Positions 2,622-45,749 of a DNA stretch of 45,749 nucleotides are shown here, piece by piece; position 1 is the stretch's first letter; every line of letters begins with the position of its first letter. Source of the DNA: a virus (lineage: Duplodnaviria > Heunggongvirae > Uroviricota > Caudoviricetes); the IMG/VR virus record IMGVR_UViG_2534681762_000010; one strand, written 5' to 3'. The position numbers and the translations under genes were made by a program. The notes under the pieces were generated by a model. That model worked only from the letters and a program-made list of their open reading frames with translations. It was not told the origin of the DNA and did not search any database.

Positions 2622-3212
2622 ATGTCTCGAATTTATGCTTACTGTCGGGTATCAACTCTGGAACAGACAACCAAAAATCAACGTCGGGAAATCGAAAGTG
2701 CAGGTTTTAACATCAAATCTCAGCAAATAATTGAAGAACAAATTAGCGGCTCAGCAGCAACCAGTGAGCGTCCTGGTTTTAACCAGTTGCTTGATCGACT
2801 GAAAAGAGGTGATGAATTGATTGTCACAAAACTGGATCGCCTCGGTTGTAATCCAATGGATATCAGTAAAACGGTGGAACAACTGACCAAAGCAGGTATC
2901 AAAGTGCATTGCTTAGCATTGGGGGGCGTTGACCTGACCAGTCCACCTGGAAAAATGATGATGCAAGTAATTTCAGCAGTCGCTGAATTTGAGCGAGACC
3001 TTTTACTTGAGCGTACTCATTCAGGGATATTAAAAGCACGGGGCGCAGGAAAGCGATTTGGTCGCCCACCTGTGTTAAATGATGAACAAATACAGAGGGT
3101 ACTAGAGCAAATTAAGTCAGGTATAAATATAAGTGACATTGCCCAAGAATTCAAAACCTCGCGGCAAACCATTTTAAGAGCTAAAGCAAAAAATCAGACA
3201 CCTGATATATAA
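2622..3212 (+). CDS. pin: Pin/Gin/Hin-family serine DNA invertase
   Basis: 196 aa, N-terminal YCRVSTLEQ catalytic serine motif, resolvase core, C-terminal HTH; convergent with the tail-fibre gene. Confidence 0.9.
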
Positions 3213-6400: not shown

Positions 6401-6756
6401 GCGGACGCGTTACGCGCCACCTCTTCCACCATCAGTTCAAAACGGCGCAGTGCCTCCGGACGGGCATCATCCTCCGTCATGGCACCGAGAAAATCATTCA
6501 GCGTACCGGGTTGAGAATCTTCATACACGGTGATGGTCCCGGCATGTGACGGCGGGAATCCCTCCACCAACAGAATAACGCTGTACTGGCCGTGCTCAAC
6601 GTCCATGCTGTAACGCCCTGCTTCATCCGGATTTTCAGATGCCACCGTGTTCACCACCACCGTGGTGCTGTTACGTTTTGCTTTCAGCTGGATTGTGCAG
6701 TTCTGTACCGGTTTACCTGCACCGTCTTTCAGTACACCTGAAATCTTTACTGCCAT
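3484..6756 (-). CDS. stf: side tail fibre (lambda Stf-like N-terminus, Ala/Ser/Thr repeat shaft, C-terminal S74-type intramolecular chaperone domain)
   Basis: N-terminus MAVKISGVLKDGAGKPVQNCTIQLKAKRNSTTVVVNT matches lambda Stf; C-terminus ...SSDRDLKDDILVISDATKAIRKMNGYTYTLKENG... resembles autocleaving chaperone domain; ATG at 6756 (track start 6762 is GTG). Confidence 0.9.
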   Translation of the reverse strand: MAVKISGVLKDGAGKPVQNCTIQLKAKRNSTTVVVNTVASENPDEAGRYSMDVEHGQYSVILLVEGFPPSHAGTITVYEDSQPGTLNDFLGAMTEDDARPEALRRFELMVEEVARNASAVAQDTAAAKKSASDASTSAREAATHATDAAGSARAANTSAGQAASSAQSASSSAGTASTKATEALKSAAAAESSKSAAATSAGAAKTSETNAAASQQSAATSASTATTKASEAATSARDASASKEAAKSSETSAASSASSAASSATAAGNSAKAAKTSETNADNSAQAAADSQTASANSATAAKKSETNAKNSEAAAKSSETNAKASETNAKSSETNAAKSAADALNYRNQAQVIVGDNIGLGSAPRDCPDISGNPSGYIGFMRIMSNAKGFPSIASGESSLTGFISQVDGTPAYTGVFQGWATRSLYTYRWNPTIGPQWTRHARKNEVDRLDQWNSETWLYNHDKSMRLGLTGSTWGCYSDTQKKWIPLDVSHGGTGAATIDGARTNLGLGRNNSPQLNSLFLDRYSDSTSTYTSSGILHTRLLATDSTVRLGADMYVETLSNEPGQLTIRFTYDGSTGASKYLNLNSEGNLIVDSAILKSTVEKPLQIRSANPAIRFNETDRPANTPTYTLIANAGDWFIQKRDYDDAGSVSNAIAYNFANDRIDVQNLKASGLITANSGIATLTGHDWNAQHTDNVDKFRPIAGSTNGPAGSMVLGGIHVQFSKNYAVQFGGRNSGFWGRTIENGTTQEWKKLLTVDDLNSSTDLAVRSLTTSNPVKSGGGRIDVLGSTSDYSKMDCFVRGFDSTGNSLAWALGSSVGVSKMLTLKNFFSGAEILLNGNDGAVQLKTGAVNGAKAQALTINKDEVNSTVDLTLTKQTGTGNRFVLQNLGNTELSFAAKVWGSSDRQNVFEVGTSAAYLFYAQKTSAGQLFDVNGAINCTTLNQSSDRDLKDDILVISDATKAIRKMNGYTYTLKENGMPYAGVIAQEVMEAIPEAVGSFTHYGEELQGPTVDGNELREETRYLNVDYAAVTGLLVQVARETDARVTALEEESTTLRENLATAGTRISTLENQVSELVALVRQLTGSEH
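5709..6414 (-). repeat. degenerate tandem repeats encoding the Ala/Ser/Thr/Lys-rich shaft of Stf
   Basis: repeated units such as gtttcgctgg...ttagc at DNA level and AAKTSETNA / KSSETNAK repeats in the protein; produce long spurious ORFs in other frames. Confidence 0.6.
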
Positions 6757-6765
6757 ATTCACCCC

Positions 6766-7487: not shown

Positions 7488-10400
7488 TCAGCTGATACTG
7501 ATGCCTGCGGTGGCTTTCTTCATCACCACAACCAGCAAATCGCTGATACTTGCTGTGGGATACCAGTCATTTACCAGCCATGCTGACACCGAAAACTCCA
7601 GCGTCATGTGGCCGCGACCAGCTGGCATATCAATAACACCACTGTAAATCAGCGTATTATCCAGCGCGGTATGGTTATAAATTTCAGCACCGTTTTTCCG
7701 TACTATCAGGCGGCATGAGGAGTAGATATCAGTATGATCTTGCTCATGTTTAGCGCCACTGAATGCCACCGCCGGGATAACAATTTGCCGGTCAAACGGC
7801 TGATCGTCATAAACCCTGACGGTAATGGTCCCTGATGGCCACCGCTCCGGTGCACGGGAGTCCCGGGGGAAAGCCTTACCCACTGTTTTGACAATATCAC
7901 CTTCAATCTGGTTGGCTGACAGTTTCCCCTTAATCTGACAGTTCTCATTAATCGTGACATTGTTGAGCGTCCCGGCGTTCGCATTCACACTGCCACTGAT
8001 ATCTGCATTTTTAGCGGTCAGCTTTCCGTCCGGTGTCAGGGAAAATGCCGGAGGATTACCGCCGCTGGTAATGGTGGGAGCCGTCAGGCGTTTGAGGAAC
8101 ACGTCGTTCATGAATATCTGGTTGCCCTGCGCCACAAACATCGGCGTTTCATTCCCGTTTGCCGGGTCAATAAACGCGATACGGTTAGCGGCAACCAGAA
8201 ACTGGCTCAGTTTGCCTTCCTCTGTATCCTCCATGCTGAGGCCAAGTCCCGCGACATAATGTTTGCCGTCTTTGGTCTGCTCAATTTTGACAGCCCACAT
8301 GGCATTCCATTTATCGTTGGCATCCTTCCACTCTTTCGAAAACTCATCCAGTCTGCTGGCGTTATCCTCCGTCAGGTCGACTTTTTCCAGCAACTCCTTG
8401 CCGAGATGAGATTCGGTTATCTTGCCTTTGAAAAAATCCAGGTAACCTTCCGCATCATCGCTCGCCCGACCGACAGCCTCCACGAATGCCGATTTGCCAA
8501 CGGTGTTCACACTGCGAACGTAAAAATAATAATCATGGCCCGGCCTGATATTGATACTGGCAGCTATCCAGTACAGCGCCGTGCCAAGATAGCGGGCTGT
8601 GGTTTCAACCTGCCTGATATCAGCAATCCGTTTTTCCGAGAACCAGAACTCAAACTGTACCGTCGGGTCATAAACCGCAAGATGCGGCGTGGCGGTTATC
8701 TGAAAATAGCCCGGTGTCAGCTCAATCCGAGACGGCGCTGCCGGTGCGGCAATCCGGAACGATACCGATGCCGGATCGCCCTGCTGTCCCCACGCATTTA
8801 CCGCCCGGACTGTCAGCCTGTAGTTCCCCAGCGCCAGTTGCGTGAAGCGGTATGTGGTTTCCGTCGTCCGGGCCGTGCTGACCAGCCGCTCACTGCCGTC
8901 ATCCGCTGCCACGGTCAGGCGAAGCATAAAGCTCACCCCCTTCACCACCTTCGGCGTGTCCCAGCGGGCCAGCACCTGATATTCCCCGCTGTCTGCGGAG
9001 ACTTCGGCAGTCAGGTGCTGTACCGCTGGCGGCGTGACACCATTCACCGTGCCGCTCTGGTCGCTGTCAAAGTGCGCCCCGTTATCCACGATGGCCTCTT
9101 TTTCAGGTACATGCTGCACGGCAGTGATGGCATACGTGCCGTCGTCGTTCTCACGGATACTCACGCAGCGGAACAGGCGCTGGCGCAGCGTCGGCAGCTT
9201 CAGCCCCCACACGCTGTATTCTGCAACGCCGTCAGGAACCCGGCTCACTTTTACCTTCACGCCGTCGGTGACGGACTGAACCTCCACGCTGACCGGATTG
9301 CCATTTCCGTCAACCAGGCTTATCAGCGTGGTGCCGGAGGATGGCAGCGTGATTTCACGGTCGAGCGTCAGCGTCCGGGTCTGGCTGTTCACCGCCAGCA
9401 CGCGACCACCGGTGCTGATACCGGCATAGTCATCATCACAGATTTCAATAACATCGCCCGGCACATGGCGAAGCCCTTCCGCACCCACGCTGAAATCCAC
9501 GGTCTGCGTTTCCAGCAGTTCCGTTTTAATCAGCCACAGCCCGGCGCGGTGTGCCTGCCCCCGACTGGTACAACCAAAGGCATCCATCTTCGTGACATTA
9601 CGACCGTAACGGGCAATGGCCTGCGTATCTTCAACAAGCTCTGTCGCCGTCTCCCAGCCGTTGTTCGGGTCAATCCAGTTCACCTCAACGGCATTATGGC
9701 GGTCCTTCAGGGCGCTGAAGCTGTAGCGGAACGGCGCGCCATCATCCGGCATCACCACATTACTGCGGTTATAGGTCCACACCTTATCCGACTGTCGGTC
9801 CTGCACGAACGTCAGCGTCTGCCCGTTCCATACCGGCATACAGCGCATCGCCGAGCAGAAATCACTGAGCACATCCCACGCCTTGCGCTGTGTGGTCAGG
9901 TAAGCGTTACAGGTGATGCGCGGCTCCGTGCCGCCAAAGCCGTCCGGCACCGACTGATCGCAATTCTGGCCGATGACATACAGCGCCCATTTATCCACAT
10001 CCGCCGCACCAAGACGTTTCCCCATGCCGTAGCGCGGGTGGGTCAGCATATCCCACAGACACCAGGCCATATTGTTGCTGTATGCTGGCTTAAACGTTCC
10101 GTCCCAGATACCGCTGTATTGCCGCGTCTGCGGGTTATAGTTCGACGGCACCTGCAGAATGCGCCCGCGAAGATGATAATTACGGCTCACCTGCTGGCTG
10201 CCGAACTGCTCCGAGTCCACCTGCACACCGACCAGTGCCGTGTTCGGGTAGCACTGTTTCACATCGATGATTTCGGTGTATGATGACCAGAGCGTTTTGT
10301 TCTGCAGCTGGTCTGTGGTGCTGTCCGGCGTCATCCTGCGCATCCGGATATTAAACGGGCGCGGCGGCAGGTTATCCACCACCACCGAGGCCAGATACTG

Positions 10401-10883
10401 CGACGTGGTTTTGCCCTTAATGGTGATGTCTTTTTCCGTCACCCAGCCACCATTACGCTGTATCTGAACCAGCAGGCGGACTTCCGACGGATTCCGATCA
10501 CCCTTTGAGGTGGTTTCCACCAGTGCCTGCACGCCGAAAGTAAAACGCAGACGGTCAATGTTTGCCGACGTGATGGTCCGGGTGATCGGCGTGTCATATT
10601 TCACTTCCGTACCCAGCACCGTCTCGGAGCCGGAGGATTCAAATCCCTCCGGCGGTGTCTGCTCCTGCTCACCTGCCCGGAACACCACCGTGACGCCGGA
10701 GATATTGGTATTCCCCTCACTGTCCAGCACCGGCGTACTGTTCAGCAGCACGCTTTTTAATCCATCCACCGGACCTTCAACCGGCCCTTCGCTGATGGCA
10801 TCGATCACACTCAGCAGCTGCGTGGACTTCAGGTTGTCCTTCGCTTCGCGCGGGGTATGCCCCTTACTGCTGCCTTTACCCAT
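7488..10883 (-). CDS. J: tail tip / host specificity protein J
   Basis: 1131 aa; N-terminus [24 protein letters not shown] matches lambda J; C-terminal about 150 aa diverge from lambda J. Confidence 0.95.
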
Positions 10884-21966: not shown

Positions 21967-23925
21967 TTACGCCGTACATTTCACCAGACCGCGGTGATCA
22001 ACTGGCGCGACACCGGCGTCAATACGCACTTTCGTTGTCACGCCATCCACACTGAAGCCCTCCATCTGATCAATATATGGCGTATCCACACCGTTGAGAT
22101 AAGCCACTTCAATCGTATCGGAGCCTTTGGACGCAGCCAGGTAGAAGGTGGTCTGGCTGTTATCATCAAGACGAGGCTCTGCAATAACGGTCGCAAAATC
22201 TTTCACCGGGTTAATAATACCGGCGTTAATGTCAGCCCCCTTGACACTTGAGGAGCGAATGACCTGGTTAGCAACAGACTCCATCGCCGTCGGTACCAGT
22301 ACGAACGCAGGACGAATATTCAGATGACGCTCCCCCTCTTTCTGAACGCGCATCAACTGGCGGGCTTTATCCAGCGATGCCACGTCCATTGCAGCGCTCT
22401 CCAGTACGTTTGCATGTTTCGCTTTATCGAACAGACTTACATTATCTGTGGAGATTTTCGGGTTAGACGTCAGAATGGCATAAACCAGATCGGCAATGGT
22501 GGATTTCGCCGCACGGCCCAGCTTCATCGGGACATCGGTCAGCATATTCAGATCATCATTGATAATGGCCTGACGGGTGATACTGAACAGCTCGCCATAG
22601 GTCGCCAGTGCAATAGTGGCCTGTTTATCTCCGGTGGTGACGTATTTATATTCCGCCCCTTCACGCACCTGACGCAGAGCACTGAAGCCCCCCATACCCA
22701 CACGATGGGCAATTTTAAAATCAGACAACTGACCTTTCCGCGTCCACTGTTCATAGGTTTCAGGAGCATCTTCCCAGCCCTGCAGAATGGCTTTGTTCGC
22801 AACATCCAGCAGAATATTACCGAAGTCAGACGTACTGTGTGTGAACGCCGCACCGACCATCTGCATCGGGTTATAACTGGAAACCCCAATACCCCGTTCA
22901 GTCAGTGACATACGGGCATATTCACGCAGGGTCATCCCGTTGTAGACATTATCACGTTCGGTTTTTTCAAATCCGGCACGCGCCATCAGCGCCTGGCGGA
23001 TCCCGTCCCCCACAAAATTACCGTTACCGGCATAAATATGAGCCGGGGTATTTTTATTGGATGGCGTGGACTCGCGCCCCATCTCGTTCAACAGCTTTTC
23101 GCGGGCCTGCTCCAGCGAACATTCAGGATCGGCAAGACACTGAGCCTGCAGAGTCTGATAACGCCCGCCAAACATGGCAAACAGATCATTAATACCGTTT
23201 ACACGCGCTTTTTGCTCTGCCAGTACCTGCGCACGGATACTGTTTTCATCCACCACGGGTGCTGCTGCCTGCACTGGCGTCCGGGGTGCTGCTGGTTCAT
23301 CATCCTGTACGCGTGGAGCACTGTTGCGTGGCGGAGTAATCATGTTTCGAATGGATTCCGGCATCTTTTTAAATTCCTCTGTACGTTTTGACTGAATACA
23401 TGCCATTGCCTTAACGGCTGGCGTTACCTGATCAGCAAATCCATGTGCCAGACATTCGGCACCGGACATCCAGGTCTCATCCGCCAGCATGGCAGCAATT
23501 TCATCGGTGGTTTTCCCGGTTTTCTGTGCATAAGCGGGTAACAGAACCGCCTCAACTTTATCGAGCAGGTCGGCATAGGTGCGCATGTCCTCCGCATCAC
23601 CGCCCGTAAAGCCAAATGGTTTATGAATCATCATGAAAGTGTTTTCCGGCATAATGACCGGGTTTCCCACCATCGCAATGACCGACGCCATTGACGCCGC
23701 CACACCGTCGACATAAACGGTAATGGACGCACCATGTGTTTTCAGCGCATTAAAAATGGCGATGCCTTCAAAGACATCGCCACCCGGTGAATTAATATGG
23801 AGATTAATGTGGGTGATATCGCCCAGTGCATTCAGATCACTGATAAACTGCTTCGCTGTAACACCCCAGAAACCAATCTCGTCATAAATATAAATATCCG
23901 CGTCACTCTGGTGACCAGCCTGCAT
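21967..23925 (-). CDS. fused ClpP-like prohead protease / scaffold / HK97-fold major capsid protein
   Basis: N-terminal ClpP motifs (INSPGGDV, Ser/His/Asp context), long linker, C-terminal HK97-like capsid domain in one frame; ATG 23925 follows the portal stop. Confidence 0.85.
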   Translation of the reverse strand: MQAGHQSDADIYIYDEIGFWGVTAKQFISDLNALGDITHINLHINSPGGDVFEGIAIFNALKTHGASITVYVDGVAASMASVIAMVGNPVIMPENTFMMIHKPFGFTGGDAEDMRTYADLLDKVEAVLLPAYAQKTGKTTDEIAAMLADETWMSGAECLAHGFADQVTPAVKAMACIQSKRTEEFKKMPESIRNMITPPRNSAPRVQDDEPAAPRTPVQAAAPVVDENSIRAQVLAEQKARVNGINDLFAMFGGRYQTLQAQCLADPECSLEQAREKLLNEMGRESTPSNKNTPAHIYAGNGNFVGDGIRQALMARAGFEKTERDNVYNGMTLREYARMSLTERGIGVSSYNPMQMVGAAFTHSTSDFGNILLDVANKAILQGWEDAPETYEQWTRKGQLSDFKIAHRVGMGGFSALRQVREGAEYKYVTTGDKQATIALATYGELFSITRQAIINDDLNMLTDVPMKLGRAAKSTIADLVYAILTSNPKISTDNVSLFDKAKHANVLESAAMDVASLDKARQLMRVQKEGERHLNIRPAFVLVPTAMESVANQVIRSSSVKGADINAGIINPVKDFATVIAEPRLDDNSQTTFYLAASKGSDTIEVAYLNGVDTPYIDQMEGFSVDGVTTKVRIDAGVAPVDHRGLVKCTA

Positions 23926-23938
23926 CCTGAACCAGGAA

Positions 23939-25447
23939 TTATTCTTCGGACTGGTCGTCGGTGTGCTGCGGCTCCTGTCGTTTCGTTGCGGCACTGCTGC
24001 CTCCTTTATCACTGGCCGGATCGGTATCAAATACCAGATCCAGCTTGCGGTTTTCATCAATTTCGGCCTTGCGCCGACGTTTGACATCATCCGGATTACG
24101 ACCACCAGCACGTACCCAGTCTGATTCTGTCGCCGCTCCACCACGAATCTGGATTTTCCAGGCCTCAGCCTCCTTAACAGGGTCAATCCACGGCATCACT
24201 GGTCCGGAATACACCGCGGTATACAGTGAAGAACGGTCAAGATCGCGGGGTAGCCTGATAACACCGGATGCCACAGCCTGTTTCAGCCAGGCACGATACA
24301 TCGGGCGGGTGACGGCACCAATAAACCAGTCCTGCAGGATCAGGTAGCCATCAGTGGACTCAACCAGTTCCTGACGCTGGGCGCTGTAAGTGCCGTTATA
24401 GTTGCGTGCCGTACTGGAAAAACTCAGACGACTGCCCGCCGCCACGGCACGCAACTGACCATTACGAAAAGTTTCAAGGTTAGGATTGGGACGATCCGAC
24501 TTCACCATTCCGATTTCTTCGCCGGGTTTCAGATCGTCGTAAATAATGCCTGGCTGAATGGTAAGCTCGCGTTCATTCTCCTTGCTGTCATTACCATCCG
24601 TTTCATAGCTCTGTCCGTCGCCTTTCCGGATGTACATCCCCAGAGCAGCGGCGATCCTTGCTGCAGTCAGCTCAGAATCTTCATACTCTTTCAGGGCGCT
24701 GAGGCGGATCAGCACACCGGACAATAAAGACGTCCCGCGCATCTGGTGCAGACGGCGAACAAATTTAAGATGCAGCATTCGCTCTGCATCCACTTCTTTG
24801 GTTTCCATCTGCCGTCCGGATACAGGACGACTTTTATACACCAGATATTTTTCGGGACGCCCCCAGTCATCAACAAACACGCCCTGATTCAGCCTGTTGC
24901 TCTCATCACTGGTCATGGGAATAAAGTCCGGCTCGAGCGCCTCCAGCCAGAAATGAACACCGGCAGAAGGCGTCAGGCTGTTTATGCGCCCGGAAACCAT
25001 CTGGGCAAACACCTCACCATCGCGCAGCCAGGTACGCAGCATCAGACGTTCCAGCATCGGACGGGTAAACTGCCCGGTGACTTCCGGACTGACAGACCAT
25101 TCACTCCATCGGGTACGTATCTCCGCTGCCAGGTCACGGGCAATGGCACCATTGCGTAATACCGGATGTGGCTCGACAATAATCCCGTTTTTCCCCACCA
25201 CCCGTTCTTCCAGCTTGTCAAATACACCAATGACCAGATCGTGGTTGTTATCAAGGTAACGGGCCTGCTCACGTAACGACACGGCCCCGTACTGGCTTAA
25301 CTGGTCGGCAGTTCGGTTCTCCCGTCGGGCTTTGTGTGTCCGCGTCGTTTTTACGGCCTCATAAGCCTGGATCACCGCTCGGGAACGCAGCCTTGCCGCT
25401 TTCCATCCTGGTGAAAAAACGCCAATCACATCATCAAGAATTGCCAT
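23939..25447 (-). CDS. portal protein (lambda-B-like family)
   Basis: 502 aa from ATG 25447; position between the W-like gene and the capsid gene. Confidence 0.85.
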   Translation of the reverse strand: MAILDDVIGVFSPGWKAARLRSRAVIQAYEAVKTTRTHKARRENRTADQLSQYGAVSLREQARYLDNNHDLVIGVFDKLEERVVGKNGIIVEPHPVLRNGAIARDLAAEIRTRWSEWSVSPEVTGQFTRPMLERLMLRTWLRDGEVFAQMVSGRINSLTPSAGVHFWLEALEPDFIPMTSDESNRLNQGVFVDDWGRPEKYLVYKSRPVSGRQMETKEVDAERMLHLKFVRRLHQMRGTSLLSGVLIRLSALKEYEDSELTAARIAAALGMYIRKGDGQSYETDGNDSKENERELTIQPGIIYDDLKPGEEIGMVKSDRPNPNLETFRNGQLRAVAAGSRLSFSSTARNYNGTYSAQRQELVESTDGYLILQDWFIGAVTRPMYRAWLKQAVASGVIRLPRDLDRSSLYTAVYSGPVMPWIDPVKEAEAWKIQIRGGAATESDWVRAGGRNPDDVKRRRKAEIDENRKLDLVFDTDPASDKGGSSAATKRQEPQHTDDQSEE

Positions 25448-25659
25448 CAGAACCTCGCCAGCCGGTACCCGGGATGCCCCCGTCGTCGTGTAATCAGAGC
25501 CGCAAGGCGGCGCTCCCACTCCTGCCGCCCCTGCCGGATCTCAGATAAGTTTTCCATGGTCATCTGCTGACCATTAAAAGTGACGGATTTTCCGTCCAGC
25601 ACCGCCATTTCAGCTTCCGTATAACGCTGAATCATGGCTTCAATATCATTCTGATTCAT
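25447..25659 (-). CDS. gpW-like head-tail joining protein
   Basis: about 70 aa ending ...RRRGHPGYRLARF, similar to lambda W C-terminus; GGAGG SD before ATG 25659. Confidence 0.6.
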   Translation of the reverse strand: MNQNDIEAMIQRYTEAEMAVLDGKSVTFNGQQMTMENLSEIRQGRQEWERRLAALITRRRGHPGYRLARF

Positions 25660-27758
25660 AACCATCCTCCGGAAGTCAGCCAGGGGTTAACATCGTCAGT
25701 TACTGTTTTCTTCCGTTTTTGTTTTTTAACAGGCGTGGATACCGGTTCCGGTGTGGGTGACGGTTCGGTACTGTCCGGGACACACTCCAGCCAGGTTTCC
25801 CGGCTCGCCCACTCCGGTGCATCCGGCCAGCGGATCTTTTCGTATCCATGCAGAATGACCAGAGCCTCGGCATACACCATCAGGTCAAAAGCTTCGTTGG
25901 CACCGCGACCCGGCTTACTCCATTTCCCGTCACTGCTCCGCTCTTCATACGTCAGTTCGTCGTAAAACCAGCTCCCCAGCCAGTCAGGGAAATGCACATA
26001 GCCGGGACCTGGCGAGTCACGCCATAACGCGTTATTCACCCGGTCTTTCAGGGCATCCGTCTGAAGAAGCCAGAGCGGTACATCACCTGCGGCCTGCGCC
26101 CGTCGGCCCGTTCGTCCGGTGTTATCAGGGAATGTACGGGTGATCAGTTTTGCGCGCCGGATGCTGTCGCCCTTAAACAGGTAAATACGTTTACCAAGGC
26201 CATCACGACGGCAACGACGCCAGAATTTATAGGCATTATCAGTGACCCCGTCTTCACCGCCGGAGTCCACCGCCATTGCCATCAGTCGCATTTGTTGAGA
26301 AGGATCGGAGGCCAGCGGCCAGCTTTTATGAAAAACATCCGTCAGCAGGACATCCCAGTCTTCCGGATAGCTGGCCGGATCAATTCGCTGGCTCTCCCCG
26401 TCGCTGTCACCGCGCAATGACTGCGTGATGTTGTAACGATCAATAATCCAGCGTTCGCCACGGCTGCCATAGCCCGTTACCTGAACCACAAAACGGCGAT
26501 GACGTCCCGCCTGCACATCCACTGTCGCCACAAGGAAATTAACGCCATCCGGCACACTGCGGGAAGGAACTGGCTCTGCCCGCTGCTCAAGCAATTCACT
26601 TTTTCGTTGCTCCATGCTGGCGCGGGGAAGATAAGGTAATCCCCAGTCGGTATTGATAACCGTCTTGAGTGTCTCTTCACTTCCGGTTGTCTCGTATTCC
26701 TGTTCTGCAGTAAGCAGTTTGTAAACGAGTTGCGAGAGTGTCTGATAAGCAGCTGCCGGCCCCTCCATCCAGAATGACGCAATACGTGAACGCCGGGGAT
26801 CACCATAACGACTGCCATCTGCATTGATGGATTCACCATCCCGTAACCAGACCCCACGTCCGTTCAGCTCGCGTTTTTGTTCAGGCAAAATCCGTCCTGA
26901 ACAGGAAGGACACTGAATATAAGCCGCCTCACTTGCCAGCACAGGATCGGCAATATCACGGAAACCAGCAACCACATCGCCGCAGGGCTGAAAATACTCA
27001 CCACAGTGTGGACAGGGCCAGTACCAGCGACGGCGATCGCCACGGTTATAGAGCGACAGGATCCCCGTGGTTGGTGGAGCCTCATGCGGTGAAGTCCGTC
27101 GCCATTTCACATCCTTCACATCCCTGCCGGGGGAACTCTCCACCAGCGTCATACCACTGGACATAAATGTGGTGGTACGTTTTGAGGCAAGAGAGAAGGC
27201 ATCCCCCTCACCATCAATATCTTCCGGAAAACGGTCATAATCCGTCAGCGCCACGCATTTATAATCTGATGAAGACATGATATTGACTGACGGCCAGCCG
27301 ATTTTCAGGTAGTTGCCAGCAAGGAATGTTCTGTCATAAACGTTGTTGTCATTTTTGTTCGGACTCAGGCGACTGACCACTTCCGGGCTGACGCGAAACG
27401 TTCTGGCGAGTCGTTTTTTGGAGTGTTCGCGGGCTTTTTCCTCCGTCATCTGAATGATCAGCATATCAGCAGGATCGCAAATCACGTTGTAAATCACCCA
27501 GCCGTCAATCAGGCCGATAGTCTTGCCGGTTCGTGCCGGGCCAACAAATATCACTGCGTCGTATTCACGCGAGGCCAGGCAGTTCATAGGCTCAATAACA
27601 TACGGTGCCACCAGCGGATCCCACGGGACTGAGTTCCCTGCCCCCATGGGCACCCGCATATACTGAGCAACGGCATCAGCAACCCGCATTCGTCTCGGTG
27701 CGCGAAGGATATAACCTGAATCGGTTCGTGCTGCCTTTGCGGTTTCCTGATTCAGCAT
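25656..27758 (-). CDS. terminase large subunit (lambda gpA-like)
   Basis: 700 aa, Walker A-like VGPARTGKT, CPHCGE zinc motif, nuclease domain. Confidence 0.9.
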   Translation of the reverse strand: MLNQETAKAARTDSGYILRAPRRMRVADAVAQYMRVPMGAGNSVPWDPLVAPYVIEPMNCLASREYDAVIFVGPARTGKTIGLIDGWVIYNVICDPADMLIIQMTEEKAREHSKKRLARTFRVSPEVVSRLSPNKNDNNVYDRTFLAGNYLKIGWPSVNIMSSSDYKCVALTDYDRFPEDIDGEGDAFSLASKRTTTFMSSGMTLVESSPGRDVKDVKWRRTSPHEAPPTTGILSLYNRGDRRRWYWPCPHCGEYFQPCGDVVAGFRDIADPVLASEAAYIQCPSCSGRILPEQKRELNGRGVWLRDGESINADGSRYGDPRRSRIASFWMEGPAAAYQTLSQLVYKLLTAEQEYETTGSEETLKTVINTDWGLPYLPRASMEQRKSELLEQRAEPVPSRSVPDGVNFLVATVDVQAGRHRRFVVQVTGYGSRGERWIIDRYNITQSLRGDSDGESQRIDPASYPEDWDVLLTDVFHKSWPLASDPSQQMRLMAMAVDSGGEDGVTDNAYKFWRRCRRDGLGKRIYLFKGDSIRRAKLITRTFPDNTGRTGRRAQAAGDVPLWLLQTDALKDRVNNALWRDSPGPGYVHFPDWLGSWFYDELTYEERSSDGKWSKPGRGANEAFDLMVYAEALVILHGYEKIRWPDAPEWASRETWLECVPDSTEPSPTPEPVSTPVKKQKRKKTVTDDVNPWLTSGGWL

Positions 27759-29883: not shown

Positions 29884-30154
29884 AATGTTACCGTAATATG
29901 TGAGTATCCATCGACTAGACACTAAGCAAAAAAGCTCCCGAAGGAGCCTTCATTTTCACTTTCTTAAATCTAACGACAGATGGCTAACATTTAAGTATTG
30001 TGAAATATTATCAAATGTAATCATCATTGATTTACAAAAGATACATTTTGCCCCGAAAGGATTTCTGTCAGAAACATCAAAAGATGATGTTCTATACTGA
30101 GAACCATGGCAACACGGGCATCTGAAGTGAATATGGTTTGTAATATTTTCTACC

Positions 30155-30367
30155 TCAAAGTGCCACTACATGAACAGCTGCAGGGCCTTTAGGTCCGTTC
30201 TCAATACCAAATTCGACTTCCTGATTCTCAGTTAACGTTTTGAAATCGTTGCTCTGAATAGCTGAGAAATGCACAAACACATCTTTGCTACCATCTTTCG
30301 GCGTGATGAAACCAAAACCTTTTTCAGGGTTAAACCATTTCACTAAACCAGTCATTTTGTTAGACAT
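30155..30367 (-). CDS. cspI: cold-shock protein (CspI/CspB-like)
   Basis: [23 protein letters not shown]... with RNP motifs; long AT-rich 5' UTR upstream. Confidence 0.75.
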
Positions 30368-30730
30368 CATTATTACCTTTTGAAGAAGTTAGCCCTTGGG
30401 CAGAATGGTCCGAAAAAAAATATCAGAGAGAAAAACCAACAAGGAAATCTCAAGAGGTACAAATAATAAAATTATAACAATGACTGCTTCAGATAATTTT
30501 GTAACAAACCAGAACACCATTAACGCATGATTAACCAACCATAGCAAGGATTACTTTTGTAAAGAAAAACACACGAATGAAACAATAGCTTTATTTATTA
30601 ATAAAACGTGTCATTCTGTCTAATGACCTTTTATCTTACCCTTAAGATTTCAAGGATTTTGACTCATGGAAGAGTCCTTTTTATTTAAATTTCACATTCA
30701 GCGCTAAAAATAATCCGATTTAATATTAAT

Positions 30731-33571: not shown

Positions 33572-34045
33572 ACAGCGAATCAGATCAAATAAAACGCACA
33601 TTTGTTAACATTTACACAAAGTCTGCGTGGGATATTCTGAAAGAATATCCATAATGTGGAGAGAATCTATTGAAGTGCATGGTGCCGGGTGCCTCCCGGT
33701 GAATTCAGTACCAGCACCTGAATCCGCGATTATCCCATATACCTACTCGCTGATTGCCCCTCCGCACAGGGGGATTCACCATGCCAGTTTCTTTTAACAA
33801 ACTCCCCGCAAACCAGAGAACAGTCAACCGCCTGAATTGTGAAGTATTTAAAAATTTCTCCCGCTAACTGATACCCGGCTAACAGTCTGGCGTTTTCTTT
33901 TTCAGCAACGGGAAAGCAACAACCACCACACCCGCCACCAGCACACCGTCAGCCAGCACTGACATTATCCGGCTGCTGCAATGCCATTCACAAAAACAGT
34001 AAGCAATCACTTTTTACCGTAACAGGTGATAATCCAGATATGTAT

Positions 34046-34509: not shown

Positions 34510-34586
34510 TGGCGCGCTGTACTGGATTCGAACCAGTGACCGATTGCTTAGAAGGCAATTGCTCTGTCCGGCTGAGCTAACAACGC
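34510..34586 (-). tRNA. tRNA-Arg (anticodon UCU)
   Basis: GCGTTGTTAGCTCAGCCGGACAGAGCAATTGCCTTCTAAGCAATCGGTCACTGGTTCGAATCCAGTACAGCGCGCCA folds as cloverleaf; anticodon loop CTTCTAA; 3' CCA encoded. Confidence 0.9.
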
Positions 34587-34686: not shown

Positions 34687-34762
34687 TGGTGGCCCTTGCT
34701 GGATTTGAACCAGCGACCTGGCGATTATGAGTCGCTCGCTCTCACCACTGAGCTAAAGGGCC
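34687..34762 (-). tRNA. tRNA with anticodon CAU, most like tRNA-Ile2 (lysidine type; ileX/ileZ-like), alternatively tRNA-Met
   Basis: GGCCCTTTAGCTCAGTGGTGAGAGCGAGCGACTCATAATCGCCAGGTCGCTGGTTCAAATCCAGCAAGGGCCACCA; close to E. coli ileX. Confidence 0.9.
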
Positions 34763-37898: not shown

Positions 37899-38054
37899 TT
37901 ACTCCTCAGGTTCGTAGACTGTGAAGACAGCGACCTCCGTCTGGCCGGTTCGGATTCGTACCTCGCAGAGGTCTTTCCTCGTTACCAGTGCCGTCACTAT
38001 GACGGTTAAACAGATGACGATCAGGGCGATTAACATCGCCTTTTGCTGCTTCAT
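37899..38054 (-). CDS. hokD: Hok-family type I toxin (HokD/RelF-like); in-frame upstream extension to 38111 is mok-like
   Basis: MKQQKAMLIALIVICLTVIVTALVTRKDLCEVRIRTGQTEVAVFTVYEPEE; AAGGAG SD. Confidence 0.85.
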   Translation of the reverse strand: MKQQKAMLIALIVICLTVIVTALVTRKDLCEVRIRTGQTEVAVFTVYEPEE

Positions 38055-38640
38055 AGCCTGCTTCTCCTTGCCTTTCGGCACGTAAGAGGCTAACCTAGAT
38101 TTGCCGTTCATAGATTGAGCCTCAGATTAATGTTAAGCGTCTTGCAGGACGCGTAATGTTAACTGGGGCTTTTCTCTATCTGCCTTTGGTGTTCATGCCT
38201 GAGACAGATAGCCTCAAGCACCCGCAGCCATTCTACTTAACTCCCGTCACCTGGCCAATATAAAATCAATCAGAAAGGCGATCCATAAGAACAACAGCAA
38301 GACAATAAATTGCCATTACAGCTGCAATAGCCAGCGCACATTTGAGAACCAGCACGACAACCTCCTGTATTGGACGTACACCAGTCCTGATAAATATGAG
38401 GCTCTCTCATCATTGATGAGATACAACTATTGGGTATAGTTTCTGTGATTTTGTTCTGTAGAAATGGAACACAACAACCAGTAACCACCAGCGATTCTTT
38501 AAATACGCCAAATCCGACGCAAGCTAACCTTCTAGTCCGCTTTGGGCGAAGACCGGACGTTCGATAGGTGTGAACTAGTAACTTTAAAAACATTTAATTA
38601 CCAGTAAAAAAACAAGAATATACTATCACTTTTCCAATTT

Positions 38641-40359: not shown

Positions 40360-41337
40360 TTACCCCCTGAAGCCCGGCGGAATTTCAGTGTCCGGTTCAG
40401 AAATGTGATTCACGCAACGCTGCGCAGGCGAACGCCCCAGGCGGATAACCAGTTCATCCCATTTTTCCCGGAGTTTTGCCGGACTCATGATGTTTTTTAC
40501 CCAGAACGAATCCCGCTGGAGACGCCCAAACATTTCACAAATTTGTCTGTGAGTTCTGCCATCCAGCATCCGCATTGTGCGAACGTCATTGGCCCATGCT
40601 GTCCAGTTGGGTTCTTTCGGTCTAGTGATCTCGCCATCATCGCTGGCCGCCTGCTCGTAAAGACTCACGATTCGTCCCCAGATCCACTGTGCGCACACCA
40701 AATCTTCCTGACTTCCCCACTGGCGTTTTTTCGCACTGAACACAACCGCGTCAGGGTGTCGGGTTAAAAAATCCTGTTCAGCCGTCTGCGGGTCCGGTTG
40801 CGAAGCGTCCGGACAAGAAGATCTTTTATCTGACGGATCAGGTTTTAATACTGACGGATCGGGGTCAATCATCGCCCCCCTAATCGGCAGTTTTTTATCA
40901 ACAGTTGATCCATCAAAATTTGACGGGTCAACCGTTGAGGGGTCAATATTTGACGGGTCAACTGTTAACGGGTCATTTTTTGCCGGGCTAATTTTTCTTT
41001 TCGGTTTATATGACTCACGCGCCGCCGCCGCAGCTGCTTCGAGTTTTTCCACATTAAGCCGATAGATATTGCTTACATTACGCCCACCGACCTTACGCTC
41101 TTCCTTCGTCAGCCAGCCCTCTTTCGCCAGTTCTGCAATAGCCGATTTCACTGTGGATTCACTTCTTGCACCGATCTGACGCCGGATAGTTTCAATGGCA
41201 GGCCATGACACGCCCTCGTCATTGCTGTAGTCTGCAAGACGGGCCATAACCGCCACCCTGGATAAGATCATGCCGGTGAAGGCGCACCCTTCCCAGACAA
41301 GACCATGAAGCTTGCTGCTCATAAAACCCCCGAACAC
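40360..41337 (-). CDS. replication initiator (lambda O-like) with iteron-encoded linker
   Basis: N-terminal winged-helix-like domain, repeated DPSTVDPSN linker encoded by DNA iterons, C-terminal domain. Confidence 0.7.
   Translation of the reverse strand: MFGGFMSSKLHGLVWEGCAFTGMILSRVAVMARLADYSNDEGVSWPAIETIRRQIGARSESTVKSAIAELAKEGWLTKEERKVGGRNVSNIYRLNVEKLEAAAAAARESYKPKRKISPAKNDPLTVDPSNIDPSTVDPSNFDGSTVDKKLPIRGAMIDPDPSVLKPDPSDKRSSCPDASQPDPQTAEQDFLTRHPDAVVFSAKKRQWGSQEDLVCAQWIWGRIVSLYEQAASDDGEITRPKEPNWTAWANDVRTMRMLDGRTHRQICEMFGRLQRDSFWVKNIMSPAKLREKWDELVIRLGRSPAQRCVNHISEPDTEIPPGFRG
40921..40995 (-). repeat. origin iterons: four to five tandem 15-bp repeats TGACGGGTCAAYYGT inside the initiator gene
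   Basis: tgacgggtcaaccgt / tgaggggtcaatatt / tgacgggtcaactgt / taacgggtcattttt / tgccgggctaatttt; further copies at 40831 and 40852. Confidence 0.6.
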
Positions 41338-41344
41338 CGTGCTT

Positions 41345-41770
41345 TTAGTGCATCACCACAGCATTCCCTGCCGGGCCGCCGCGATTCATCTGGTCATACA
41401 AAACAACCGCTGACGCAACAAAATCATCGACATCCTTCACCAGCCGATCCCTCCGTTCGACGATCTCACGGTAATATTCAGAACTGTGGCTGCGCATACG
41501 GGCCACCAGCAAAGGCGGCATCGCCTTTTCGATCGCCGGTAACAGAGCCTGCATTTTTTCAACAGCATCAGGGGTGTCTTTATCCAGCCAACGGAAAATT
41601 TTCTGGGTATTACGGGCCAGGGCTTCCGGATGGCTGTCGTCGTACAGTTCAGGGAACGTCATCCCCAGTTCGAAATAAGTCCGGGCTATTTCAGCTGCAG
41701 GAACTTTCTCACCATCAGGGTATGCCCAGGCATTCATCGCCATGCGGATGTGCTCATGTTTGATTTTCAT
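41345..41770 (-). CDS. YdaT-like protein (Rac-type early-right gene)
   Basis: 141 aa, MKIKHEHIRMAMNAW...; occupies the cII position after the Cro-like gene. Confidence 0.55.
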   Translation of the reverse strand: MKIKHEHIRMAMNAWAYPDGEKVPAAEIARTYFELGMTFPELYDDSHPEALARNTQKIFRWLDKDTPDAVEKMQALLPAIEKAMPPLLVARMRSHSSEYYREIVERRDRLVKDVDDFVASAVVLYDQMNRGGPAGNAVVMH

Positions 41771-42077
41771 GAATCATTTGCCTCTTGATGCTTCGGGTAT
41801 GATCGTTTTCGTCATTTGGTTGCTTCATCGACATATTCTGCGAATAACATGACGAGCGTCGTAAGTATGTCCAATCAACATCAGGACGAAGTTCTTCACA
41901 CAGGACACCACCTTTTGTTGCTCGTTCAATCGCAGGACATCTCTCAGCAGGTAACTGACGTACACCTTTGATCCATTGATTTACGCTTGGAGGAGATACA
42001 CCTAAAAGCCTAGCCATTGCTGATTGCCCACCGACAACAGCACAAGCTCGTTTGAATGAATAGTTATCTTTTTTCAT
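41754..42077 (-). CDS. Cro-like HTH regulator (YdaS-like)
   Basis: HTH AMARLLGVSPPSVNQW; ATG 42077 with GGAG SD; divergent from repressor gene. Confidence 0.65.
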   Translation of the reverse strand: MKKDNYSFKRACAVVGGQSAMARLLGVSPPSVNQWIKGVRQLPAERCPAIERATKGGVLCEELRPDVDWTYLRRSSCYSQNMSMKQPNDENDHTRSIKRQMIHENQT

Positions 42078-42104
42078 CGAATGAACTCCAAAAAACACGC
42101 AACA

Positions 42105-42173
42105 ATATTAGGCTTAGCCTAATGAAATTGTCAATAGGCTATGCCTAATACATCGAGAGTAGGGATTGCCTAA
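42105..42173 (+). promoter_or_regulatory. right operator/promoter region: three dyad operators plus pR
   Basis: TTAGGCTTAGCCTAA (42108-42122), ATAGGCTATGCCTAA (42134-42148), GTAGGGATTGCCTAA (42159-42173), centres about 25 bp apart; minus-strand TTGACA (42129-42134) - 18 bp - TAATAT (42105-42110). Confidence 0.6.
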
Positions 42174-42201
42174 CGCGATGCGCATAGGAGACTATTAAGC
42201 A

Positions 42202-42678
42202 ATGCTTAGTGGTAAAGACTTAGGCCGAGCGATAGAGCAGGCCATTAACAAAAAAATTGCATCAGGAGCCGTCAAATCAAAGGCGGAAATCGCACGTCAT
42301 TTCAAAGTCCAACCACCATCAATCCATGACTGGATTAAGAAAGGTTCGATAAGTAAAGACAAACTTCCAGAACTATGGCGTTTCTTTTCTGATGTGGTTG
42401 GTCCAGAGCATTGGGGGCTTAACGAATACCCCATACCAACCCCATCCACTTCAGATACAAAAAGTGAACTTTTAGACATAAACAGCCTTTATCAAGCCGC
42501 CTCTGATGAAAAAAGAGCAATTGTGGCTTTCATCTTATCTGGAAATGCTACGGAGCCTAGTTGGGTTGATCATGACGTTCGCGCCTACATTGCCGCAATG
42601 GAAATGAAGGTAGCTAACTATCTGAAAAATCAAGAATCAAAACGGAAAAGCCAGAACATCACCAAGACAGGAACTTAA
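42202..42678 (+). CDS. prophage repressor (XRE-family HTH, RacR-like)
   Basis: 158 aa, HTH KAEIARHFKVQPPSIHDWIKKG; flanked by operator clusters on both sides; AGGAG SD. Confidence 0.75.
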   Translation: MLSGKDLGRAIEQAINKKIASGAVKSKAEIARHFKVQPPSIHDWIKKGSISKDKLPELWRFFSDVVGPEHWGLNEYPIPTPSTSDTKSELLDINSLYQAASDEKRAIVAFILSGNATEPSWVDHDVRAYIAAMEMKVANYLKNQESKRKSQNITKTGT

Positions 42679-42771
42679 ACTTATATGGCCCGACGGGAAA
42701 TTCCTAGTTCCCGTTAGTTAACTCCTACTACCTCTCCCACAAACCATCACCTATTAGGTTGCGCCCAAATT

Positions 42772-42815
42772 ATTAGGAATAGCCTATTGACAAGTAATTA
42801 GGCATTTCCTATAGT
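42772..42815 (+). promoter_or_regulatory. pL-like early-left promoter with overlapping operators
   Basis: TTGACA (42787-42792) - 17 bp - TATAGT (42810-42815); operator-like TTAGGAATAGCCTA and TTAGGCATTTCCTA overlap it. Confidence 0.6.
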
Positions 42816-42996
42816 TTTCCCATACCAACCCATCCCGTCCCACACAATACAGGGCAATACCTCGAGTTACCAGGCAGTGGTCAGGGGTTAAGTAGCCAGC
42901 CCGAGGCGTAAGAACATGACGGCAGGGTTCAACTTTAATAACTATGCAGCAGGTTTTTGTTCCGCTACCCCGGCGTTAAGGGGAAATGAGGTCAGC

Positions 42997-43149
42997 ATGG
43001 ATACTATCGAGCTTGGCAACAACGAATCTCTGGTATGCGGCGTGTTTCCCAACCAGGACGGCACGTTTACCGCGATGACATATACCAGAAGCAAAACGTT
43101 TAAAACTGAAGCTGGCGCGCGTCGCTGGTTAACCAGAAACACTGACTGA
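42997..43149 (+). CDS. YdfA/YdaG-family small protein
   Basis: MDTIELGNNESLVCGVFPNQDGTFTAMTYTRSKTFKTEAGARRWLTRNTD; GAGG SD; first gene of early-left operon. Confidence 0.5.
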   Translation: MDTIELGNNESLVCGVFPNQDGTFTAMTYTRSKTFKTEAGARRWLTRNTD

Positions 43150-43160
43150 TGAGGTTGACG

Positions 43161-43481
43161 ATGGAATTTAAAGATTTACCAGTACCATTCCAGGAAATGG
43201 CATCGAATGTGGTTCGCTCTCAACTGGCGACTCTTGACCTGAGTACCGTAGAAAAAGAAACCATCGACAATATATCCGGTAACGTACGCCGAGCCTTTAT
43301 CGGGCTGTACGAAGAGAAGCAGCTCTCTGATAACCAGGATTTACATGAAAAATACTTCCTGGATCTAATGGACATCATTGATAAGGGGTTTGGCTTGTTA
43401 ATGAAAAAGAAAGGGATTCGAATAGAACCCCTTGAAAATTACTTTGCAACAAAAAGCATTAATTCTTTTGATTCAAAATAA
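43161..43481 (+). CDS. hypothetical acidic protein (AT-rich gene)
   Basis: 106 aa from ATG 43161 with GAGG SD. Confidence 0.4.
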   Translation: MEFKDLPVPFQEMASNVVRSQLATLDLSTVEKETIDNISGNVRRAFIGLYEEKQLSDNQDLHEKYFLDLMDIIDKGFGLLMKKKGIRIEPLENYFATKSINSFDSK

Positions 43482-43734
43482 GAGAATTAATTACAGACTT
43501 AACATGCTCTTTCTCATGATTGAAGCTCTCATGATTGAAAGTGCCGGGTTGAAGCGAGTCGATATAATCAACAAGACTCTGTCGTACGACTTCATTTTTA
43601 TCCATAACAGATGCAAGAAATGAAATTGCTAAAAGAGTTATATCACTACGCGCCGCAGCATGTTGCAATGCTTTATCAAAATTATTAATCTGGCGTATCA
43701 GGGAGTTAATGATTTCATCATTTTCAGTCGACAT
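43459..43734 (-). CDS. hypothetical protein, convergent with and overlapping the preceding gene
   Basis: 91 aa from ATG 43734 with strong AGGAGGG SD; AT-rich. Confidence 0.45.
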   Translation of the reverse strand: MSTENDEIINSLIRQINNFDKALQHAAARSDITLLAISFLASVMDKNEVVRQSLVDYIDSLQPGTFNHESFNHEKEHVKSVINSLILNQKN

Positions 43735-44069
43735 TTCACCCTCCTGAGGGTTGGTGATTAAGGAGTTCTCCACGGGTGAGGTGGAGTGCGTGCGCCGGAC
43801 ACGGGTGAGCATCCGGCACTGACAGTTTACTGAAAGGATATTTCCCTGAAAAGTCAGACCATAACGCGAAAGCGCACGGCGAGGTAGCTGGTTCATAGAT
43901 AGCCTGTCGTTAAATTTTCGTCGACCGTGCGCTTCCGGTTGTGGCAATCCGCGAAATGGCGCGGCGGTAAGTATGGCGGGGTTATTCCTTCCCCCGTTGA
44001 GGACACCGGGTTGTCAGGTTGACCATACGCTTAAGTGACAACCCCGCTGCAACGCCCTCTGTTATCAAT

Positions 44070-44122
44070 TTTCTGGTGACGTTTGGCGGTATCAGTTTTA
44101 CTCCGTGACTGCTCTGCCGCCC
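44070..44122 (+). ncRNA. dicF: DicF small RNA (ftsZ translation inhibitor)
   Basis: TTTCTGGTGACGTTTGGCGGTATCAGTTTTACTCCGTGACTGCTCTGCCGCCC followed by TTTTT, matching the 53-nt DicF sequence as I recall it; located just upstream of dicB as in Qin. Confidence 0.7.
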
Positions 44123-44296
44123 TTTTTAAAGTGAATTTTGTGATGTGGTGAATGCGGCTGAGCGCACACGGAACAGTTAAAACCAAAAACAGTGTTATGG
44201 GTGGATTCTCTGTATCCGGCGTTAATTGTTAACTGGTTAACGTCACCTGGAGGCACCAGGCACCGCATCACAAAATTCATTGTTGAGGACGCGATA

Positions 44297-44485
44297 ATGG
44301 AAACGTTATTACCAAACGTTAATACGTCTGAAGGTTGTTTTGAAATTGGTGTCAATATCAGTAACCCTGTATTTACTGAAGATGCCATTAACAAGAGAAA
44401 ACACGAACGGGAGCTATTAAATAAAATATGCATTCTTTCAATGCTGGCCCGTTTACGTCCGATACAAAAAGGATGCTGGCAATGA
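44297..44485 (+). CDS. dicB: DicB-like cell-division inhibitor
   Basis: 62 aa METLLPNVNTSEGCFEIGVNISNPVFTEDAINKRKHERELLNKICILSMLARLRPIQKGCWQ; GAGGA SD. Confidence 0.7.
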   Translation: METLLPNVNTSEGCFEIGVNISNPVFTEDAINKRKHERELLNKICILSMLARLRPIQKGCWQ

Positions 44486-44673
44486 ATACAGCATTTGCAC
44501 TTGTTCTGACAGTTTTTCTTGTTTCCGGAGAGCCAGTTGATATTGCAGTCAGTGTTCACAGGACAATGCAGGAGTGTGTGACTGCAGCAACCGAACAGAA
44601 AATTCCCGGTAACTGTTACCCGGTCGATAAAGTTATTCACCAGGATAATAACGAAATCCCGGCAGGTCTTTAA
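44482..44673 (+). CDS. ydfD: YdfD-like small secreted/membrane lysis protein
   Basis: 63 aa MNTAFALVLTVFLVSGEPVD...; AAGGA SD; directly follows dicB as in Qin. Confidence 0.6.
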   Translation: MNTAFALVLTVFLVSGEPVDIAVSVHRTMQECVTAATEQKIPGNCYPVDKVIHQDNNEIPAGL

Positions 44674-44765
44674 AACAGTTCCGTAATAAATATCCGGTTT
44701 CATTCTTATATGCCAGCAATGGCAGGGATTTGCTCACCCTTAAATCTGTAATGAGGTAAAACAAA

Positions 44766-45749
44766 ATGAGTAAAGTCTTTATTTGCGCCGCCATTCCGGA
44801 CGAACAGGCAATAAAGGAAGAAGGTGCCGTCGCTGTAGCCACTGCCATTGAAGCCGGTGATGAACGTCGCGCCCGCGCAAAATTTCACTGGCAATTCCTG
44901 GAGCATTATCCGGCTGCTCAGGACTGCGCTTATAAATTTCTTGTCTGCGAGGATAAACCCGGTATACCCCGCCCTGCCCTCGATTCCTGGGATGCTGAAT
45001 ATATGCAGGAAAATCGCTGGGATGAGGAGTCTGCTTCCTTTGTCCCGGTTGAGACTGAATCCGATCCGATGAACGTCACTTTTGACAAGCTGGCCCCTGA
45101 AGTACAGAACGCTGTCATGGTTAAGTTCGACACATGTGAAAACATCACCGTTGATATGGTTATTAGCGCACAGGAATTGTTGCAGGAAGACATGGCAACA
45201 TTCGACGGACATATCGTTGAAGCGTTGATGAAAATGCCAGAAGTTAACGCCATGTATCCGGAGCTTAAGCTGCATGCCATCGGGTGGGTTAAGCATAAAT
45301 GTAAGCCTGGTGCCAAATGGCCCGAAATTCAGGCAGAGATGCGCATCTGGAAAAAACGTCGCGAAGGTGAACGCAAGGAAACCGGAAAATACACGTCTGT
45401 TGTTGATCTCGCCCGCGCCAGAACCAATCAACAGCACAGTGAAAATTCAACAGGAAAAATCAGCCCGGTCATTGCTGCCATTCATCGCGAATACAAGCAG
45501 ACATGGAAAACACTGGATGACGAACTGGCCTACGCTCTCTGGCCTGGTGATGTGGATGCCGGAAACATTGACGGCAGCATCCATCGCTGGGCAAAAAATG
45601 AAGTTATCGACAACGACCGCGAAGACTGGAAGCGTATCTCGGCATCAATGCGCAAACAGCCTGATGCCCTTCGCTACGACCGCCAGACTATTTTTGGCCT
45701 TGTCCGTGAACGTCCGATCGACATTCACAAAGACCCTGTGGCACTGAAC
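44766..45749 (+). CDS. large early-left-operon protein, 5' part only (runs off window end); YdfE-like by position
   Basis: ATG 44766 with GAGG SD 9 nt upstream; 328 codons without stop to the window end; absent from the supplied ORF track but verified codon by codon. Confidence 0.6.
   Translation, partial: MSKVFICAAIPDEQAIKEEGAVAVATAIEAGDERRARAKFHWQFLEHYPAAQDCAYKFLVCEDKPGIPRPALDSWDAEYMQENRWDEESASFVPVETESDPMNVTFDKLAPEVQNAVMVKFDTCENITVDMVISAQELLQEDMATFDGHIVEALMKMPEVNAMYPELKLHAIGWVKHKCKPGAKWPEIQAEMRIWKKRREGERKETGKYTSVVDLARARTNQQHSENSTGKISPVIAAIHREYKQTWKTLDDELAYALWPGDVDAGNIDGSIHRWAKNEVIDNDREDWKRISASMRKQPDALRYDRQTIFGLVRERPIDIHKDPVALN

Follow-up and report, generated by a model that had tools for sequence, protein, structure and literature searches.

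Besides the annotated 823-aa prophage exonuclease that it matches, three described systems stand closest to the gene considered here. The first is RecE (exonuclease VIII) of the Rac prophage (NF007259; nuclease domain in PDB 3H4R), a large prophage nuclease encoded in the early-left operon upstream of xis-int, whose catalytic domain is of the PD-(D/E)XK type with 5'-3' polarity and whose gene in K-12 Rac adjoins recT. The N-terminal region of RecE is of unknown function, and full-length RecE improves linear-linear recombination (PMC11611040). The second comprises T4 DexA and Rv2179c of M. tuberculosis (PF16473), which are small single-domain enzymes of about 170-230 aa; the structure of T4 DexA has been described, and EcD, an E. 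coli homologue of DexA, is reported to confer protection from T4 through digestion of 5hmC DNA (PMC12153337). The third is ydfE (b1577) of the Qin cryptic prophage of E. coli K-12, which lies directly past dicF-dicB-ydfD and is annotated as a pseudogene; IS2E interrupts it at about codon 256, past which the frame reads into IS sequence. We propose that the end of the DNA analysed here, a window of 45,749 nt, very probably carries the 5' part (about 40%) of an intact-looking exonuclease gene of about 823 codons belonging to the early-left operon of a lambdoid prophage. K-12 ydfE is an IS2-truncated remnant of this same gene. The gene is already annotated, widespread and ordinary; searches of the literature on ydfE, the Qin exonuclease and Rv2179c in phages found no functional study of the protein.

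Translation from the ATG at 44766 on the plus strand gave 328 sense codons up to the window edge, as the first-pass annotation had read it; an independent translation, re-checked by script, found no in-frame stop between 44766 and 45749, and the GAGG that had been placed 9 nt ahead of the ATG is indeed there (Table 1). An in-frame TAA (44757-44759) lies directly upstream and, since the ATG at 44766 is the first and sole ATG, GTG or TTG past it by script, the start codon is unambiguous. It had also been remarked that the ORF track showed only alternative-frame ORFs over this DNA. This is correct for the ORF list over 42000-45749, from which the 328-codon frame is missing, and the explanation is that the lister, by its stated rule, omits ORFs running off either end; the absence is therefore not a property of the sequence. 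The long alternative-frame ORFs had further been taken as typical of a genuine coding region. The coding call itself was right, but such ORFs are weak evidence for it and are not needed. As a point of quality control, ORF tracks that omit edge-open frames hide real genes, and here a codon-by-codon check caught one.

The last 1750 nt of the window (from 44000), which hold the dicB-ydfD-ORF stretch, have matches in 4759 of 5426 complete E. coli genomes (4883 records); the median genome has two such places, and the maximum is nine. The best matches are 99.9% identical and include E. coli EC21Z-078, in which a RefSeq CDS (L001 9767-12238) begins at the same ATG (9767 corresponds to window 44766) and runs for 2472 nt to encode an 823-aa 'exonuclease', WP_074522321.1. 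Over the 984 nt of the fragment the two copies differ by one synonymous and zero non-synonymous changes. The fragment is colinear from residue 1 with phrog_2082 (positions 1-328 of 823, E 1.1e-257) and is 98% identical to an 823-aa cluster representative, P0121; the stop of the gene is expected near window-equivalent position 47237. The phages Evi, mEp460_ev081, Tritos and HannyBb have records with a copy at 97-98% amino-acid identity, and the PPompW prophages of EHEC carry one at 91%; start codon and gene order are conserved among the copies. Comparison with three diverged copies gave dN/dS values of 0.07 (phage Tritos), 0.18 (a PPompW prophage) and 0.09 (K-12 Qin), which indicate that the 328-codon frame is under purifying selection. 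The first-pass annotation had named the ORF, by position, as the gene after ydfD and YdfE-like. Both points hold: it follows directly on dicB and the DUF1482 (ydfD) gene, and its product shares 96% amino-acid identity with K-12 YdfE over residues 1-257. Unlike K-12 ydfE, the window copy stays in frame to at least codon 328 and matches intact 823-aa genes. The names given in related records are 'exonuclease', 'exonuclease VIII' and 'exodeoxyribonuclease encoded by cryptic prophage CP-933P'. Of the 120 best database homologues, the majority come from short contigs and are annotated as 'partial', a pattern that a multi-copy prophage repeat would produce by breaking short-read assemblies.

Table 1. 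Features of the window, with positions counted from its first letter and the basis of each call.
Feature	Position	Strand	Basis or remark
DNA invertase	2622-3212		
Tail fibre	3484-6762		
J	7488-10883		
Tape measure	13275-16370		
Protease/capsid fusion	21967-24186		
Large terminase	25656-27758		
O-like replication protein	40360-41337		
YdaS-like	41754-42098	-	Immunity region
RacR	42202-42678		Immunity region
162-aa ORF between ydfA-like genes and dicF	43459-43947	-	No Pfam or PHROG match
DicF sRNA	44071-44122	+	Rfam RF00039 over its whole length (1-52); 76.7 bits, gathering score 48
dicB, cell division inhibitor	44297-44485	+	PF05358 4e-36, NF049927 7e-38; coordinates from RefSeq CDS L001 9298-9486 shifted by +34999
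ydfD-like DUF1482 gene	44482-44673	+	PF07358 7.8e-25; equals RefSeq CDS L001 9483-9674
Alternative-frame ORF, 243 aa	44706-45437	-	ORF list
Shine-Dalgarno-like GAGG	44753-44756	+	Sequence reading; 9 nt ahead of ATG 44766
Exonuclease gene (very probable), 5' part, codons 1-328 of about 823	44766-45749	+	984 nt, cut by the window edge
YdfE-type N-terminal module, aa 1-205	44766-45380	+	phrog_5943 'unknown function' positions 1-257, E 6e-178
Alternative-frame ORF, 157 aa	45274-45747	+	ORF list
Predicted disordered linker, aa 206-237	45381-45476	+	AF2 pLDDT 40-53 (blocks 201-240)
Start of central helical domain, aa 245-328 (84 residues)	45498-45749	+	Shared with RecE/exonuclease VIII

The part of the protein encoded in the window falls into an N-terminal module, a linker and the start of a central domain (Table 1). 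An AlphaFold2 model of the fragment, built on 48 homologues, averaged 82.5 in pLDDT; its pTM was low (0.39), as the arrangement of the domains is undefined. It comprises an alpha/beta subdomain (about aa 1-100) and a helical subdomain (about aa 105-205), both mostly at pLDDT 84-94, then the linker, of which segments 206-211 and 220-237 fall below 50, and a helical domain from aa 245 on at 80-91. No catalytic motif was recognised in aa 1-205; the model gave no fold match for the N-terminal region in PDB or BFVD, and the profile of the 48 homologues found no match for it among PDB sequences. The 328-aa fragment had no Pfam match in the local copy; its homologues carry the precomputed families PF27430 and PF27432, both newer than that copy, and a literature search for the two families found nothing. 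The start of the central domain is related to RecE, as aa 246-325 match NF007259 (exodeoxyribonuclease VIII) at positions 271-351 (E 4.2e-9, 35.1 bits) and aa 242-327 are 43-46% identical to proteins labelled 'RecE' in phages HK225 and mEp237 and in Klebsiella prophages.

The remaining domain content was read from the 99.9%-identical 823-aa homologue in EC21Z-078 (L001), the window copy ending at codon 328. In this homologue the RecE-related region extends over aa 246-626 (NF007259 positions 271-603, 282.7 bits), is 39% identical by BLASTP to K-12 RecE (aa 262-626 against RecE 278-592) and includes a CxxC...CxxC zinc ribbon at 551-566, so that the central non-nuclease region and zinc ribbon are shared with RecE of Rac. 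The nuclease domain is of another kind. Residues 642-813 match PF16473 (Rv2179c-like DEDDh 3'-5' exonuclease, 3.1e-63), with the DEDDh residues D646, E648, D746, H796 and D801 present, whereas RecE carries a PD-(D/E)XK nuclease of 5'-3' polarity. The match to PF16473 runs from end to end of the domain, but about 630 aa precede it, in contrast to the single-domain architecture of T4 DexA and Rv2179c. The sole match of the full-length homologue among PDB sequences is the C-terminal domain with 8kel (E 6e-4), a 227-aa exodeoxyribonuclease which, from its length and the S87/D90 numbering, we infer to be T4 DexA. Judged by homology, the stretch of the protein encoded in the window is all non-catalytic, and all predicted catalytic sequence lies past codon 328.

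A HMMER scan of 1.84 billion cluster representatives returned just 160 clusters at E <= 1e-3, and the family is therefore a narrow one. Domains were mapped by phmmer on representatives clustered at 50% identity. The central domain (aa 246-345 of the window protein) is present in most of the full-length representatives mapped, and the N-terminal modules are of two types, that of YdfE and that of RecE. At the C-terminus there may be a DEDDh domain (for example P0121, P0139 and P0245) or the PD-(D/E)XK nuclease of RecE, the latter with a YdfE-type N-terminus (for example P0129, P0213 and P0218) or with a RecE-type N-terminus (for example P0256 and P0261); all four combinations of the two N-termini with the two nucleases were found. 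Further C-termini are without a Pfam match and fall in phrog_2489 or phrog_7838 ('exonuclease') or in phrog_26058 ('unknown function'). Among relatives of 700-790 aa, P0125, P0133, P0137, P0144 and P0152 have a YdfE-type N-terminus and a C-terminal half without a Pfam match, and the same holds for P0160, P0175, P0221 and P0246. On sequence, these halves point to at least one further uncharacterised type of C-terminal domain.

As relatives carry the N-terminal and central parts joined to three or more other C-terminal domains, the RecE nuclease among them, and by analogy with RecE, we propose that the part encoded in the window may serve as a non-catalytic scaffold or targeting region. A more specific reading, which is possible but to which we attach clearly less than even credence, is that the YdfE-type module and the central domain together make up a self-contained adaptor or targeting unit that is portable, has a fold absent from solved structures and has been joined interchangeably to nucleases acting in opposite directions (3'-5' for DEDDh, 5'-3' for the RecE PD-(D/E)XK domain), as well as to two or more other C-terminal types. 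If this were true, identifying what the unit binds, whether DNA ends, a phage partner or some host factor, could help to account for the N-terminal region of RecE. In either case the gene bears on the role of the extensive N-terminal regions, themselves non-catalytic, of prophage nucleases like RecE.

The order dicF-dicB-ydfD-exonuclease is common to phage Tritos and K-12 Qin, and the order dicB-ydfD-exonuclease is also found in PPompW. In the window the ORF occupies the distal end of the early-left operon, in which DicF, dicB and ydfD are the upstream members. In Tritos the exonuclease gene is followed by xis and int; in EC21Z-078 it is followed by the excisionase and integrase genes and then by ompW, which marks the prophage end. 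The 823-aa homologue thus shares with RecE the position of a large nuclease of an early-left operon upstream of xis-int, but the loci differ in that no annealase gene (recT or bet) is annotated adjoining the exonuclease in L001, Tritos or PPompW. The 92-nt gap between ydfD and the ATG contains no plus-strand terminator or promoter consensus, which makes co-transcription with ydfD probable. We suggest that the exonuclease gene would be transcribed together with dicB and ydfD from a repressor-controlled early-left promoter, on loss of the repressor, and that, while the prophage is being induced or in the course of lytic growth, the enzyme would trim 3' ends of DNA. The lack of an adjacent annealase and the 3'-5' polarity argue against a classical role of the RecET or Red type. 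The dicF-dicB-ydfD block is joined here to immunity of the RacR/YdaS type, as against the DicA/DicC pair in K-12 Qin. The minus-strand ORF between the ydfA-like genes and dicF is present in the matching genome as a shorter RefSeq version of 438 nt (about 145 aa; hypothetical protein WP_001351093.1), and its position and orientation resemble those of sieB in Rac.

Exclusion genes are frequent in the early-left regions of lambdoid prophages. One alternative is that the complete protein acts in superinfection exclusion, as an anti-phage nuclease of the HREX kind in which the DexA-like domain would degrade modified phage DNA and the N-terminal region would regulate or target it. The distant similarity of the C-terminal domain to 8kel is in keeping with this, and EcD, through its digestion of 5hmC DNA, offers a precedent (PMC12153337). 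However, EcD is a different, stand-alone protein. Equating the two was considered and rejected, as the EcD primers encode a protein that starts MIDTET... and ends ...TIPETYD before the stop, whereas the 823-aa protein has ...LMIDLET... and ends ...IPNQADF; the EcD results are therefore not transferable. Moreover, PADLOC-DB 2.0 returned 0 families for the fragment and just a generic DEDDh match (1.5e-5) for the full-length homologue, and the gene is also found in the four phage genome records listed above. We consider an anti-phage function unlikely, and retain an exonuclease of the prophage's own early-left operon as the preferred reading.

It is less probable still that the window copy is a decaying pseudogene fragment without a functional product. 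K-12 ydfE would be the model for this, as an IS2E-truncated pseudogene of the same gene, and many database entries are partial, some copies are frameshifted (PPompW_132418 is annotated as such) and the 3' 60% of the window copy lies outside the window. Against this, the 328 codons contain no stop or frameshift, the single difference from the intact 823-aa copy is synonymous, the dN/dS values are low (0.07-0.18), and the structural, lysis, replication and immunity genes of the prophage in the window are all retained. Another possibility, which we regard as very improbable, is that the gene encodes a true RecE orthologue, a 5'-3' dsDNA exonuclease acting with RecT in single-strand-annealing recombination. 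The central region is homologous to RecE (about 271-603) and some close relatives are labelled 'exonuclease VIII', but on NF007259 the fragment scores 35.1 bits and the full-length homologue 282.7 bits, as against a cutoff of 1269. In addition, phmmer with RecE 600-866, the PD-(D/E)XK nuclease, misses the 823-aa P0121, which has the DEDDh domain instead, RecE 1-270 has no significant similarity to aa 1-245, and no recT or other annealase gene is annotated beside the gene in the three loci examined. A chance open frame, which has nothing in its favour besides its absence from the ORF track, can be dismissed given the probability of 328 consecutive open codons (about 1e-7 at the local base composition of 50.4% G+C), the 0 of 20,000 shuffles of the 984 nt that remained open, hundreds of homologues, the signature of purifying selection, and the existing RefSeq and GenBank annotation.

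The window as a whole (1-45749) represents a near-complete lambdoid prophage that runs from the tail-fibre end to the early-left end (Table 1). None of the complete E. coli genomes is colinear with its right-hand 25 kb, the best match reaching 89% coverage at 98.9% identity, and the prophage is therefore a mosaic of known modules. Rfam and ARAGORN located five RNA features on its minus strand (30094-30525, 33623-33813, 38049-38223, 34510-34586 and 34687-34762), the five kinds being a cspA-type thermoregulator leader, the sRNA STnc100, a sok antitoxin RNA (hok/sok), tRNA-Arg(tct) and a tRNA with anticodon cat.
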